DNA of 64,000 nucleotides from a virus (Duplodnaviria > Heunggongvirae > Uroviricota > Caudoviricetes). Below, piece by piece: positions 44,455-48,838 of the stretch (the first letter of the stretch is position 1; every line of letters begins with the position of its first letter). The translations under genes were made by a program, and so were the position numbers. The stretch covers positions 112,443 to 176,442 of the IMG/VR virus record IMGVR_UViG_3300039208_000529; one strand, written 5' to 3'. The notes under the pieces are model-generated. The model was not told the origin of the DNA, did not search any database, and saw nothing but the letters and a program-made list of their open reading frames with translations.

Positions 44455-44532
44455 TGGTAGGGGCAGCAGGATTTGAACCTGCGACCTTCCGGGTATAAGC
44501 CGTATGCTCTCACCAGACTGAGCTATGCCCCC
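44455..44532 (-). tRNA. tRNA-Ile (anticodon UAU)
   Basis: Acceptor GGGGGCA/TGCCCCT, D-loop AGTCTGGTGA, loop CUUAUAC, T-loop TTCAAAT, CCA encoded. One A-G mismatch in the anticodon stem. Confidence 0.65.
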
Positions 44533-45671
44533 GTTCCGTATAGACCATGCTGTCTAACGTATTCAGAGACCTCACTAACCAGTCCAGTGTGATCGCCGCC
44601 TCTAATAACTGTACTGCTCATGTTCGAGCCTTCACTAGACACAATATCATGGCTTATGTGTTGTGTCAATTCATTCTCCAGAATTTTTACACCCGGCCGT
44701 GCAAAAATCTTGAAATGAGCATCTTGTAGTACATACTTTAACATTTGCCCATTACTGATATATTGATGTGGATTGACAAAAGCATTCCAAGTGTCGGCAC
44801 CAACGATGTATGTGTATTTTTTCTTATCGAGACTCTGCAAAAGACCATGTTTATCGACGAACATTGGATATGCTGTCAACAGTACGGGATAGTGACACAA
44901 ATCAATCATTTTGATTCTGTGCAACATATCTTCCGCAGAAATTTTGCTTTTGCGGCAATTTAGCTGCGACAATTCAAGCAGAGCGTCCCCAGCGTTTTCC
45001 AGATGGGCACGATGGATAGGATTAAATGATCCTGAATAAACAGTATCATACTTCCGTACATAATCAACAACTCTATGAAATTTTCCATCTTCGTATACCA
45101 AAGGATTGCCAGGACGTAAAAGATTCAAGCGGTCCACATCACTTACGTCCGGAGCGTACAAAACGTCAATGTAACAAGTGTAATCAACTGTTTCAATTGC
45201 TTTTTTCCAATCCGATTCACTAAAAAAGACCTGATCTAGAAACCAAGATACAATCTTAGAGACTCTAATAGACGCATATCCTCTATCTCTTTCTAAGAAA
45301 GACACATGCATCCAAGCATCGGTGTCTGCTCCACTTCGAGCTAGATAAACCCACAAGTGACTTTCTCTATCTTCGTAGTGGGCTCCTGAAATAGCAAGGC
45401 CAAAATATTGATTCATGGGTTCGGAATTAGCAGCGTATTGCTCATAACCTCTATGCAGAGATTCTTCTGCTGCTTTTTTAACCCACTCTAAAGTAACGCG
45501 GCGAGTCTTTTGAGCTGAATGCCTTTTCTGATATGGACACTCCATTTTCAGTAATGTTTTTGAAGCTCCTGGAGTATTCAAAAGATCATACGTAAATCCT
45601 ACTCCAATACCGACCTCAGTAATGAAGCCCTTCCAAGAACTTTCGTTAAGTCTATTAAAAAAATCTCTCAT
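44523..45671 (-). CDS. NMN adenylyltransferase domain (C-terminal half) fused to an N-terminal domain of unknown function
   Basis: VYSGSFNPIHRAHL (HxGH-type) motif at about residue 210. Adjacent to the NadV gene. Confidence 0.65.
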   Translation of the reverse strand: MRDFFNRLNESSWKGFITEVGIGVGFTYDLLNTPGASKTLLKMECPYQKRHSAQKTRRVTLEWVKKAAEESLHRGYEQYAANSEPMNQYFGLAISGAHYEDRESHLWVYLARSGADTDAWMHVSFLERDRGYASIRVSKIVSWFLDQVFFSESDWKKAIETVDYTCYIDVLYAPDVSDVDRLNLLRPGNPLVYEDGKFHRVVDYVRKYDTVYSGSFNPIHRAHLENAGDALLELSQLNCRKSKISAEDMLHRIKMIDLCHYPVLLTAYPMFVDKHGLLQSLDKKKYTYIVGADTWNAFVNPHQYISNGQMLKYVLQDAHFKIFARPGVKILENELTQHISHDIVSSEGSNMSSTVIRGGDHTGLVSEVSEYVRQHGLYGTGA

Positions 45672-47134
45672 GATACTGAAACACGCTCACGAATTTCGGC
45701 CAACGTCCAGTCTCGAATTATTTCGCCATTGCGGAACACCGTTTGAAGCATGTTGCCGTTGGCATTATCTTGACCTTGGACAGTGAGGACTTGCCCCTCA
45801 CGTCTTACCAAAGACAGTCTACCACGCTTAGAATTCTTTGTCGAATCCGTTGCCGGTTTCTTGAAAATTTCTCGCCCCTCTTTATTTACTTGCATCCAAG
45901 AACACTTGATGGCGAATCTTTGCGTGTCGCGGTCAAAATCCTGCAATAAGCCTCCACCGCTCCCAAAAGCGATATTATCCGCCGAAATAGTATTTCGGCG
46001 AAATGATTCCAAGATTTGTTCAACGGTATGGCGTGGTTTTCTCTCCGCAAGCATATCAGAAAGTTTTTCAGTTAAGTCAGATGTGTTCCAAGAATTACGT
46101 GTCCACTTAATACCATCGCCCTGAATCATACGAACATATGGAGGCAACACATGATATCCTTTACTATTTACTTCTGTGCCAAATTCCTCGGCTAATGCTT
46201 GGAATACCTGAATATCAATATCGGGAAGCGTTCCGGAATCTGGACGGAATACTACTGTGCCGTTCCGACTGCGGATCATGTCATAAATATCTCTGTTTTT
46301 AGCAATCACTTGATCGATAAAACCAATCGTATCAAACGAGTCGATCACCATGGCCACAAGACCCTCGGGATGCGTAGTCAGAATCTGACGAACAATGTCG
46401 GCTTCGCCTTCTGGACCCCGAGCAGTCATAATAGAGTGCTCCGTAGCAGGGATGGAAAATCCCGCCATAGGCTCATGATAGTAGTTCTTCAAAAGAGAGA
46501 GAGCAGCCATTGTATCTGTGCCCATAGCTCCGGTAGCTAGATGGGCGGCTCCCGCTAGTGCCGCAGTCTCCACAGAGGAAACTCCTCTATAACCAAAATC
46601 ATGAAGCTTGAAATCAAGCCCTGCTGGATCTCCAGTAAGGTCTAAGTATTTCTTAATGATTTTCCTAACTTCGTGACTGCCCGTAGCCACGGTGATAGGA
46701 GACCAAACTTGCATGAGAACTGTTTCAAGGAAGTTGGTAAGCCACGGAACTTGCCAGTCGGTGTTTTCGATAGTGAAAAGCACATTCCCGGTAGGAATAA
46801 TCTCTCCCTCGGGCACTGCTTTAATTACAACAGGAAGATATCCTTTGTGCTTTTTGAGAATGTATTCCCAGCCCTCACGATTGAACACATCTTCTCGCCC
46901 AAAGTGAGCAGCACACAGTTCGGCTGCTTCATCAATTTTAGCTTGAGTTACAACTTGTCCAACTAAATACTTTTTCAGAATATATTGTAACCCAAAAAAT
47001 AGACTTGCGGGGAAGCGAGCACCAACCCTTGATTCACAGTATGAATACACCTTCTCTGTACCAGGAGGATACAGAGAATGATGAGATTGCTTATAACTGT
47101 CAGTGCCAACAGCCAATAAATTGAAATTGTTCAT
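45668..47134 (-). CDS. nadV: nicotinamide phosphoribosyltransferase (NAMPT/NadV)
   Basis: GTDSYK, GFSIPATEHS and FGSGGGLLQ motifs. Confidence 0.9.
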   Translation of the reverse strand: MNNFNLLAVGTDSYKQSHHSLYPPGTEKVYSYCESRVGARFPASLFFGLQYILKKYLVGQVVTQAKIDEAAELCAAHFGREDVFNREGWEYILKKHKGYLPVVIKAVPEGEIIPTGNVLFTIENTDWQVPWLTNFLETVLMQVWSPITVATGSHEVRKIIKKYLDLTGDPAGLDFKLHDFGYRGVSSVETAALAGAAHLATGAMGTDTMAALSLLKNYYHEPMAGFSIPATEHSIMTARGPEGEADIVRQILTTHPEGLVAMVIDSFDTIGFIDQVIAKNRDIYDMIRSRNGTVVFRPDSGTLPDIDIQVFQALAEEFGTEVNSKGYHVLPPYVRMIQGDGIKWTRNSWNTSDLTEKLSDMLAERKPRHTVEQILESFRRNTISADNIAFGSGGGLLQDFDRDTQRFAIKCSWMQVNKEGREIFKKPATDSTKNSKRGRLSLVRREGQVLTVQGQDNANGNMLQTVFRNGEIIRDWTLAEIRERVSVS

Positions 47135-47409
47135 TATCCAAGTCCTTTCATAAATCCAAAAAGAATACGACTTTTCTCGTTATCCTCTCTATTATGAAAA
47201 ATCAAGTAGTTTTTGTACCGACGTTGCTCGCTAACTCTTGATGCCACAAGTAACGCAATAGGCCAATACAATGTATGTAGCATCAGTTTGTTTTGCAATC
47301 TGTATTGCAAAATTCGAGTTGAGATAGATGGCAGTCCAATATTGATGTATGTCAAAAAAACAAGCATACCAAGCAAAACAATAACTAAGGTACTCATAAT
47401 TATCTCCAT
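47134..47409 (-). CDS. small membrane protein (2 TM segments)
   Basis: Hydrophobic helices. Stop/start overlap with nadV. Confidence 0.5.
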   Translation of the reverse strand: MEIIMSTLVIVLLGMLVFLTYINIGLPSISTRILQYRLQNKLMLHTLYWPIALLVASRVSEQRRYKNYLIFHNREDNEKSRILFGFMKGLG

Positions 47410-47870: not shown

Positions 47871-47872
47871 AG

Positions 47873-48001
47873 TTAATCGCAGAAGCAAATTAGGGCCGCT
47901 AACCCGGCGAGGAACGCACCAAAAACAAACCCTTTGACGATGCACAACACGCAAACACCAATCATTGCGATGCCACCAATTGTGCGTCGTACGTCAATCA
48001 T
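47873..48001 (-). CDS. small membrane protein (42 aa, below the cutoff)
   Basis: ATGA overlap with the Nudix gene stop. MIDVRRTIGGIAMIGVCVLCIVKGFVFGAFLAGLAALICFCD. Confidence 0.4.
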   Translation of the reverse strand: MIDVRRTIGGIAMIGVCVLCIVKGFVFGAFLAGLAALICFCD

Positions 48002-48489
48002 TCTCTTGTTGGCCAATTTTTATACTCACTCTTTTTCCAGGTCATATAGTCTACAATCATCTGACCGTGATCAAAACAAATGTTATTAATTGCTGGACCC
48101 TCAAGGCTTGCAACGAATCCACCACCATTCATATTGCCGTCGAAACAGAAATCTTTAGTATTAAACAGCACAATATTTTTAGCATCATCTGCTGCTTTAG
48201 GTTCACCAAGAGCTTGTGCCACATAACAGACTGTTACACAATGTTCTCGGGGATCCCTGTTTGGATTAGAATACGTATGAAATTGCACAATATCCGTAAT
48301 CAAAAGACCAGTTTCCTCCTCCGCCTCACGGATAGCCGCTTGCATTGTAGTTTCTCCGATATCCACAAACCCGCCAGGCAAAGCATATCCGTGAGGCGGA
48401 TTCTTCCGTTCAATCATTACAATATGATCTTCTTTGTGAGCCAATTCAATAATGATATCGACGGTTAGCTTAGGAGTTTTGTGAGACAT
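47998..48489 (-). CDS. Nudix hydrolase
   Basis: Nudix box GGFVDIGETTMQAAIREAEEETGL. Start taken at the internal Met. Confidence 0.8.
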   Translation of the reverse strand: MSHKTPKLTVDIIIELAHKEDHIVMIERKNPPHGYALPGGFVDIGETTMQAAIREAEEETGLLITDIVQFHTYSNPNRDPREHCVTVCYVAQALGEPKAADDAKNIVLFNTKDFCFDGNMNGGGFVASLEGPAINNICFDHGQMIVDYMTWKKSEYKNWPTRE

Positions 48490-48838
48490 CAGGACGTTTC
48501 TCCGTTTTGCTTCTCGACAAAATTTTCCACCTGTCAACCGGATCTGTACCGATCAGATCTCTTACCGTAGGTTTTATATCGCCCTTATATGCTTTTGGTT
48601 TAGTCCACCTATTACCACTTTTCATACCAACCAAGCCCATGATCCTAAAAGGACAATCTTCTTTAATGTCAAAAAATCTATCCATAAATACTACAATATA
48701 TTTGTCGCCATCTGTCCTTTGGAGAATTGCCCCCTCCGACAAACCCTCGGTGTGATCGAGCGGCTCTAATTGCTTTAACAAGTCTTCTGCCCAAACATGT
48801 AACTTGTCATTCCCAGCTGCATTCAATTGATTTTCCAT
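48470..48838 (-). CDS. hypothetical protein
   Basis: 122-aa ORF. Confidence 0.45.
   Translation of the reverse strand: MENQLNAAGNDKLHVWAEDLLKQLEPLDHTEGLSEGAILQRTDGDKYIVVFMDRFFDIKEDCPFRIMGLVGMKSGNRWTKPKAYKGDIKPTVRDLIGTDPVDRWKILSRSKTEKRPDVSQNS

Follow-up and report, generated by a model that had tools for sequence, protein, structure and literature searches.

In this work we analyzed a 64,000 nt stretch of phage DNA (positions 112,443 to 176,442 of IMG/VR record IMGVR_UViG_3300039208_000529), here called the window, and found in it a cluster of genes for nicotinamide adenine dinucleotide (NAD+) metabolism which pairs the phosphoribosyltransferase NadV with a 382-aa fusion protein. As judged from sequence profiles and a structure model, the N-terminal part of this protein is a divergent domain of the CinA/PncC fold, that of the nicotinamide mononucleotide (NMN) deamidases, and its C-terminal part is a nucleotidyltransferase that appears NadD-like rather than NatV/NadM-like. 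A general role of the block in NAD+ salvage is very likely. As to the whole, we lean towards a reading in which NadV would convert nicotinamide to NMN, the NadD-like domain would convert NMN to NAD+, and the CinA-like domain would bind NMN without deamidating it; the core of this reading, a phage salvage module of NadV, NMN adenylyltransferase and Nudix hydrolase, has the support of homology and of a gene order that related phages share. The host of the block is a large uncultured phage, and the same protein sequence is on record from a contig as long as about 177 kb. All genes of the cluster lie on the minus strand, and the open reading frames (ORFs) and domains on which the argument turns are as follows.

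47998..48489, minus strand: stand-alone Nudix hydrolase, 163 aa, ATG start (Pfam NUDIX, intact Nudix box)
45668..47134, minus strand: NadV, nicotinamide phosphoribosyltransferase (Nampt), 488 aa (Pfam, PHROG, NCBIfam)
44523..45671, minus strand: two-domain fusion, CinA/PncC-like plus NadD-like, 382 aa, TAG stop
45222..45671, minus strand: CinA/PncC-like domain, residues 1-150 of the 382-aa protein (fold)
45045..45221, minus strand: linker sub-domain, residues 151-209 of the 382-aa protein (conserved within the phage clade)
44523..45044, minus strand: NadD-like nucleotidyltransferase domain (NMN or nicotinic acid mononucleotide adenylyltransferase, NMNAT/NaMNAT), residues 210-382 plus the TAG stop (Pfam, Foldseek, motifs)

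Matches to Pfam (NAMPT_N, E = 5.8e-37; NAPRTase, E = 4.6e-36), to PHROG 448 (E = 1e-144) and to NCBIfam PRK09198 (550 bits, cutoff 405) agree in identifying 45668..47134 as NadV, as had been proposed when this DNA was first read without database searches (the sequence-only reading). Over at least 97% of its length the protein shares 38-45% identity with NadV of isolate phages, the KVP40-like nt-1 and ValKK3 among them; with 38% identity over 99% of length to NadV of KVP40-like phages it is a Nampt homologous to KVP40 NadV, as found in NAD+ reconstitution pathway 2 (NARP2).

The sole Pfam match of the 382-aa protein is to CTP_transf_like (residues 211-357, E = 2.4e-4; 21.7 bits against a cutoff of 21), no PHROG family is matched, and the matches to the NCBIfam nadD models are partial and do not pass the equivalog cutoff (TIGR00482, 5e-10, 39.7 bits against 112.45; PRK07152, 1.8e-10, 40.3 bits against 315). 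For the C-terminal domain Foldseek gave as best matches NadD of M. abscessus (5deo, E = 2.4e-7), NadD of B. subtilis (1kaq, 2.7e-6) and the NMNAT of P. falciparum (PfNMNAT; 5llt, 3.2e-6). Conservation of motifs was counted over 137 full-length family members, in which G-S-F-N-P-x-H220-x-x-H223, N238-x-x-K241, R252, G291-x-D293 and S352-S353-T354-x-x-R357, which we take to be the hallmark motifs of NadD and NMNAT enzymes, are invariant or nearly so (H223, K241, G291 and D293 invariant; R252 in 136 of the 137). The window protein carries H220-R-A-H223 and S352-S353-T354-V-I-R357, and thus the (H/T)xxH and ISSTxxR motifs together with a Rossmann-like fold. Since every catalytic motif of the NMN/NaMN adenylyltransferases is kept, this domain looks catalytically intact. 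The sequence-only reading had the gene coordinates right, and also the motif GSFNPIHRAHL, which occupies residues 214-224 and, like the CTP_transf_like match, is confined to the C-terminal half. Fold and motifs (GxFxPxHxxH, NxxK, RxxM, GxD, SSTxxR) are shared with bacterial NadD, from which the protein differs by its partial TIGR00482 match (40 bits against 112) and by its extra N-terminal domain and linker. We read the adenylyltransferase half as NadD-like because its best structural matches are NadD (5deo, 1kaq) and because tblastn found no match in any KVP40-type phage; bacterial NadD enzymes generally prefer NaMN. Secondary structure is predicted for the linker (pLDDT, the predicted local distance difference test, about 88-97), which has the clade-specific conserved residues W155, D169, G196, R200 and R206 and of which residues 182-209 also occur in the stand-alone NMNAT of a related locus, L005.

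The impression that the N-terminal 200 aa match nothing recognizable did not survive closer comparison. In an AlphaFold2 model of the 382-aa protein made with eight homologues (pLDDT 87; predicted template modeling score, pTM, 0.87) the N-terminal half matched CinA structures when the whole model was submitted to Foldseek, and a profile of 36 N-terminal sequences found T. thermophilus CinA in the PDB (E = 8e-4) over the motif block PGAS...PY...(R/K)AVS..A. It should be noted that a profile of 8 such sequences found nothing in the PDB, that phmmer with the whole protein against PDB sequences returned noise and a marginal NadD match only, and that the window protein has no match to Pfam CinA at the gathering score, two distant family members coming near it with 18.7-18.9 bits against a cutoff of 23.5. 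By model and profile the domain is nonetheless a divergent member of the CinA/PncC (NMN deamidase) fold, having the fold of the CinA C-terminal domain (PF02464). A duplicated NMNAT, considered in the sequence-only reading, is ruled out because the fold of the domain is that of CinA. Compared with the known PncC/CinA proteins (E. coli PncC, A. tumefaciens CinA 2A9S, T. thermophilus CinA 4CT8), which stand alone or are fused to a COG1058/MocF domain, the present domain is fused to an adenylyltransferase, lies below the Pfam threshold, has a shortened loop after the conserved Tyr and no catalytic Lys, and carries Thr at the catalytic Ser position, which varies among its relatives.

For the active site the family profile was aligned to E. 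coli PncC (from the MG1655 record) by hmmsearch and hhalign, with A. tumefaciens CinA (AtCinA) numbering as reference. The conserved blocks of PncC/CinA have been described (PMC3855486); in AtCinA the mutants S31A, K63A and R145A are inactive, and Y58 and S48 bind the NMN phosphate (PMC5384747). The correspondences are the following.

AtCinA G46/S48, phosphate binding: window G35/S37, kept in at least 128 of 137 members
AtCinA Y58, phosphate binding: window Y47, kept in 137 of 137 members
AtCinA R145, phosphate binding: window R130, kept in 137 of 137 members
AtCinA S31, catalytic: window T18; the wider family has Ala in 68 of 99 members, the phage clade Ser, Cys, Thr, Ala and His in 15, 6, 4, 4 and 2 members, respectively
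AtCinA K63, catalytic: no counterpart; residues 48-56 form a shortened loop of low pLDDT that is not conserved and has no conserved Lys

The phage clade, to which the window protein belongs, accounts for 38 of the best-matching 137 full-length members and has the motif I-[S/C/T/A]-E-V-G-x-G where the wider family has A-I-T-G-G-G. Little or no variation is seen among the 137 members at G35-A36-S37, Y47 and R130, and the NMN phosphate-binding residues are present where the Ser/Lys catalytic dyad (S31/K63) is absent; by alignment, then, the predicted nucleotide-phosphate site is kept and the dyad is not. Because S37, Y47 and R130 are retained, the equivalent of Lys63 is gone and the Ser31 position is Thr or, in the wider family, mostly Ala, we think that the domain most probably binds NMN but does not deamidate it. 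It would then act as an NMN-binding module for substrate capture, hand-off or regulation, and probably also for dimerization, in the service of the adenylyltransferase. The loss of the dyad could also be explained by a degenerate relic that serves for folding or dimerization and binds no ligand; CinA proteins are dimers with composite sites (PMC5384747), and the NMNAT domain of L005 stands alone. We hold this to be very unlikely: in 137 diverse members Y47 and R130 never vary and G35 and S37 hardly do, and as these are the residues with which PncC binds the phosphate, their conservation speaks for a maintained pocket that holds a ligand.

Several observations weigh against the reading preferred here. 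The phage clade shows hardly any variation at E19, H98, H105, W107 and H122, whose places are probably inside or close to the CinA pocket and whose conservation suggests chemistry, not mere binding; the nucleophile position is Ser, Thr or Cys in 25 of the 38 clade members; the mapping of residues near 90-98 differs between hhalign and a strand-based reading; the best structural matches of the C-terminal domain are NadD, typically NaMN-preferring, and a preference for NMN is not readable from sequence; and L005 is a stand-alone 199-aa NMNAT, 34% identical to the C-terminal half, without a CinA-like domain, so that this domain is not indispensable. By strand topology E19, H98 and H105 are probably placed at the pocket end of the sheet.

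These residues, together with the retained PncC fold and phosphate-binding site, the frequent Ser, Thr or Cys at the nucleophile position and the resemblance of the C-terminal domain to NaMN-preferring NadD, would also suit an active NMN deamidase in which Glu19 and/or His98/His105 replace Lys63 as the general base. The fusion would in that case be a PncC-NadD enzyme leading from NMN to NaMN and on to nicotinic acid adenine dinucleotide (NaAD), with host NadE completing the synthesis, and PncC followed by NadD and NadE is indeed the normal bacterial route of NMN recycling (PMC3855486, PMC5384747). We nevertheless consider such a deamidase, the main alternative to the reading preferred here, unlikely: there is no counterpart of the catalytic Lys63; a true nucleophile is expected to be invariant, whereas 6 of the 38 clade members have Ala or His at its position, and 68 of 99 in the wider family have Ala; the route would cost extra ATP and depend on host NadE, no homologue of which is encoded in the 64-kb window (only part of the genome); and Pfam CinA is reached neither by the window protein nor by its relatives (18.7-18.9 bits against 23.5). 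A further alternative, which we regard as clearly unlikely, is that the pocket of the phage clade, having lost Lys63 and gained E19, H98, H105, W107 and H122, was rebuilt as a new catalytic center, either of a Lys-independent and possibly metal-dependent NMN amidohydrolase or of a hydrolase of an ADP-ribose-derived or pyridine-nucleotide immune signal. If this were true, one protein would both remove a defense-related nucleotide and regenerate NAD+.

To return to the reading in which NMN is bound and adenylylated, the substrate of the fusion should ultimately derive from NMN, because its gene sits downstream of nadV. Lee et al. are said to have described, in 2017, NadV and the bifunctional NatV of phage KVP40. 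NARP2 is the pair formed by KVP40 Nampt and NatV, a NadM-type NMNAT-Nudix protein, and overcomes Thoeris and DSR2 (bioRxiv 10.1101/2024.02.11.579819). The present block is alike in pairing a phage NadV with an adenylyltransferase of the HIGH superfamily and a Nudix protein of the NadM/NrtR group, and in its predicted chemistry from nicotinamide and phosphoribosyl pyrophosphate (PRPP) to NMN and on to NAD+. It differs in that its adenylyltransferase is NadD-like, where that of KVP40 is NadM-like, and has no BLAST similarity to any isolate-phage NatV, and in having an N-terminal CinA/PncC-like domain, a separate upstream Nudix gene and attached cREC and metallophosphoesterase genes. NadM/NatV proteins join NMNAT and Nudix in one polypeptide with the NMNAT N-terminal; here, as the sequence-only reading had pointed out, the arrangement is different, with the Nudix in a separate 163-aa gene 2.3 kb upstream, its sequence still being nearest to the Nudix domains of NrtR and NadM. 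That reading had also assigned the block to the NARP2 route, and this stands as far as the Nampt and an adenylyltransferase of the same superfamily are concerned; a homologue of KVP40 NatV was not found by tblastn with KVP40-type phages or by PHROG, and the best structural matches are NadD. Given these NadD matches and the lack of a tblastn match to KVP40-type phages, the window adenylyltransferase is on present comparisons an analogue, not an orthologue, of the NARP2 Nmnat, and it may have the same function without orthology to NatV. In the KVP40-like phage nt-1 no adenylyltransferase gene was present within 4 kb of nadV.

Two other pathways were ruled out. A Prs-like gene, to be expected for NARP1 (Adps and Namat), is lacking: with E. 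coli Prs as query, no Prs/Adps homologue was found by tblastn in the window or in related loci, among them the IMG/VR loci L001-L012 (best E = 8). NARP3, which consists of PnuC and NadR (PMC13464706), does not fit a NadD-like NMNAT half, and no PnuC- or NadR-like protein was noticed among the ORFs scanned, which cover part of the window. In the survey of Iyer et al. the partners listed for NadV are NadM and NadR alone, and CinA/PncC goes unmentioned (PMC9503650). In the literature searched we found no description of a CinA-like/NadD-like fusion in phages, nor of such an architecture in a paper on cyanobacterial NMNAT-C (PMC13036487) or in the POF1/NMNAT/CinA literature. The same architecture and length are found in uncharacterized proteins annotated "cytidyltransferase-like domain" (for example UniProt A0A6J5RR79 of an uncultured Caudovirales phage; metagenome-assembled genomes (MAGs) of Planctomycetes, Acetobacteraceae and Azotimanducaceae). 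The phage members among them share the Nudix-NadV neighborhood; the window protein is set apart by its place in the smaller clade (38 of 137).

The distribution of the family was addressed by an exhaustive profile search with the N-terminal domain, counted in representative clusters. A total of 2078 clusters were found at E<=1e-3 and 856 at E<=1e-10, where a word-index search had given only 8 relatives; most of the best 150 matches are 340-440 aa long and therefore have the same two-domain architecture. Names at the source are generic ("cytidyltransferase-like protein"), apart from an IMG name that combines NaMN adenylyltransferase with nicotinamide mononucleotide, and BFVD holds one uncultured-Caudovirales protein with the same two-domain fold, labeled only "cytidyltransferase-like domain containing protein". 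Four IMG/VR contigs of 105-183 kb (L001-L004) carry full-length homologues, 36-41% identical, each with NadV (55-62% identical) directly upstream of the fusion and a Nudix gene just before NadV; in L001 and L004 a 51%-identical metallophosphoesterase lies directly upstream of the Nudix gene, and in L002 and L003 cREC homologues (43-44% identical) adjoin Nudix/NadV. A member of the other subfamily, P0041 (locus L009, on a 172-kb contig), likewise has the order Nudix-NadV-fusion, and the locus of P0003 (L098/L099) reads Metallophos-Nudix-x-NadV-x-fusion with T4 rIIB downstream. The order Nudix-NadV-fusion is thus found in L001-L004, L009/L096 and L098/L099, all of them viral (up to 183 kb) or phage-like metagenome contigs; this recurrence, like the 4-nt overlap of the two genes in the window, speaks for a functional link between NadV and the fusion. 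At L098/L099 a 343-aa ORF (6989-8020) between NadV and the fusion has a weak radical-SAM match (E = 9.5e-4, under cutoff).

The phage clade was found on viral or metagenomic contigs only. Among 50,697 phage records the protein was not found in any isolate phage, the sole matches being records of uncultured phages, two of them huge phages; tblastn with the 382-aa protein against these records gave a single weak match, in an uncultured phage, while KVP40-type phages were not matched, and megablast with the 4-kb region returned nothing. Full-length homologues in GTDB genomes (Planctomycetes, Acetobacteraceae, Stellaceae, Azotimanducaceae and other Gammaproteobacteria) are only 22-25% identical and have no NadV within 5 kb, and no NAD-related neighbors were recognized in the ORF lists, taken without family scan, of the bacterial loci L060, L067, L069, L080 and L016. 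On the related viral contig L005 a Nudix gene and a 309-aa ORF (4605-6588) precede the stand-alone NMNAT, with no NadV within 6 kb. Relatives of the adenylyltransferase are also present in giant-virus MAGs (Terrestrivirus, Yasminevirus), namely L007 (IMGVR GVMAG-M-3300010160-4) and the BFVD entries A0A3G4ZJY5 and A0A5K0UAF4; according to Iyer et al. (2022), NAD+ salvage was not found in eukaryotic viruses (PMC9503650).

Besides the Nudix gene, NadV and the fusion, the block contains the following ORFs.

49517..49897, minus strand: cREC (cyclic-phosphate-processing receiver-like) domain protein, 126 aa (Pfam cREC_REC PF20274)
48807..49520, minus strand: calcineurin-like metallophosphoesterase, 237 aa (Pfam Metallophos, PHROG 1649)
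48470..48838, minus strand: 122-aa ORF of unknown function, overlapping both neighbors
47873..48016, minus strand: 47-aa hydrophobic ORF with a TTG start, doubtful as a gene (hydropathy)
47400..47870, minus strand: 156-aa soluble ORF of unknown function (hydropathy)
47134..47409, minus strand: 91-aa ORF with one N-terminal transmembrane segment (hydropathy)

The Nudix hydrolase was correctly recognized as a separate gene in the sequence-only reading (Pfam NUDIX E = 2.3e-18, Nudix box intact, JGI gene call with identical coordinates). Its best NCBIfam similarities, all under cutoffs, are to NrtR (4.8e-12) and to the Nudix half of bifunctional NadM (1.4e-9), and its PDB sequence matches include NadM-Nudix 2qjt and 2qjo (E = 3e-7). 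Homology thus places it in the NrtR/NadM-Nudix, ADP-ribose pyrophosphatase-like group, which comprises ADP-ribose binders and pyrophosphatases. The cREC protein scores 52 bits against a cutoff of 27 (E = 1.2e-13) and the metallophosphoesterase matches Pfam Metallophos (E = 3.6e-12) and PHROG 1649 (E = 6e-25). Opening of cyclic phosphates such as ADPr>P is a predicted, not a demonstrated, activity of cREC domains, which in phages commonly occur linked or fused to Nudix proteins and to phosphoesterases of the calcineurin-like kind (PMC9503650). Neither the 122-aa nor the 156-aa ORF matches a Pfam, PHROG or NCBIfam family, and the 91-, 156- and 47-aa ORFs have no counterparts in the related loci. 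Of what had been described as three small membrane ORFs two are hydrophobic, that of 91 aa (Kyte-Doolittle maximum 2.54 over residues 1-30) and that of 47 aa (maximum 2.39; no JGI gene call); the 156-aa ORF has no hydrophobic segment and appears soluble.

The cluster had been delimited as 44523-48537, and while the NadV, fusion and Nudix genes placed there are confirmed its upstream end was set too short, as it reaches through the metallophosphoesterase (48807-49520) to the cREC gene (49517-49897). From 49897 down to 44523 neighboring genes share 1-32 nt or leave a gap of 2 nt: the cREC and metallophosphoesterase genes overlap by 4 nt, as do NadV and the fusion gene, and the stop of the 91-aa ORF overlaps the NadV start by 1 nt. 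Promoter-like and terminator-like sites in the block are no more frequent than in shuffled sequence. On account of these overlaps and the lack of an excess of such sites, 44523-49897 looks like a single transcription unit; the junctions fit the translational coupling that had been proposed, and coupling itself is possible.

In the mechanism we envisage, the Nudix hydrolase, possibly with the cREC protein and the phosphoesterase, would convert ADP-ribose or its cyclic-phosphate derivatives to AMP and ribose-5-phosphate, the host would convert ribose-5-phosphate to PRPP, NadV would join PRPP and nicotinamide to form NMN, and the fusion protein would adenylylate NMN to NAD+. By analogy with KVP40 (bioRxiv 10.1101/2024.02.11.579819) we infer that this could maintain NAD+ during infection, including against NAD+-depleting defenses such as Thoeris, DSR and SIR2. 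The same enzymes may instead serve mainly as a general NAD+ supply for NAD+-consuming or redox needs of the phage, such as RNA repair and nucleotide metabolism, an explanation we take as plausible but doubtful. The region of the block also has a ribonucleotide reductase, two RNA ligases, a tRNA nucleotidyltransferase and 10 tRNAs; cREC, calcineurin-like phosphoesterase and Nudix proteins have been linked to the clearing of ADPr>P from RNA repair (PMC9503650); and NARP2 of KVP40 raises NAD+ even without a defense system. That same pathway overcomes Thoeris and DSR2 in tests, however (both bioRxiv 10.1101/2024.02.11.579819), the two roles can coexist, and no NAD+-consuming KptA or sirtuin was identified, no systematic search having been made for one.

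Phage NAD+ reconstitution is a recently recognized counter to NAD+-depleting immunity (Thoeris, DSR, SIR2-HerA), and many uncultured large phages pair NadV with the different adenylyltransferase described here. The block has a non-orthologous NadD-like adenylyltransferase with a deamidase-fold domain, a split-off Nudix gene and linked cREC and phosphoesterase genes, for a chemistry that would be that of NARP2. The Nmnat step has earlier been surveyed with KVP40 NatV as query (bioRxiv 10.1101/2024.02.11.579819) or as NadM and NadR only (PMC9503650). Since the enzyme has neither a PHROG match nor a tblastn match to isolate-phage NatV, searches seeded with NatV could miss it and NARP2-like pathways may be undercounted. 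The family is large (2078 representative clusters) and includes bacteria, and the fusion constitutes a natural experiment, in which a deamidase-fold domain without the catalytic lysine is joined to an enzyme that uses the same nucleotide.

As for the surroundings, the large subunit of ribonucleotide reductase lies at 674-2572 on the plus strand. The two RNA ligases (PHROG 562 and 968) and the tRNA nucleotidyltransferase (PHROG 2244) are encoded at 23333-24397, 26711-27985 and 32888-33889, all minus, and make up, with the tRNAs, a toolkit for RNA/tRNA repair that shares its strand with the NAD module. Directly downstream of the fusion (41651-44434, minus strand) are an AAA ATPase (505 aa; weak AAA_5/MoxR-like matches, PHROG 1297) and then a DUF2201_N metallopeptidase-like protein (421 aa; PHROG 1314); the ATPase stop abuts the DUF2201_N gene start, and synteny of these two genes with the NAD module is not seen in related phages. 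Ten tRNA genes were found in the window. One with anticodon CTA (40450-40525, minus strand) is an amber suppressor, labeled "Pyl" by ARAGORN; recoding of TAG is not indicated, as TAG terminates 14 of 80 long ORFs, among them the fusion gene, and read-through joins nothing sensible. The gene for tRNA-Ile (anticodon TAT; 44455-44532, minus strand) starts 10 nt before the stop codon of the fusion ORF, so that gene and tRNA overlap. A tRNA-like gene to which ARAGORN assigns no definite identity, with the two-base anticodon "aa" (51992-52065, plus strand), sits at the strand switch, and the GC skew changes sign at about 51-52 kb.

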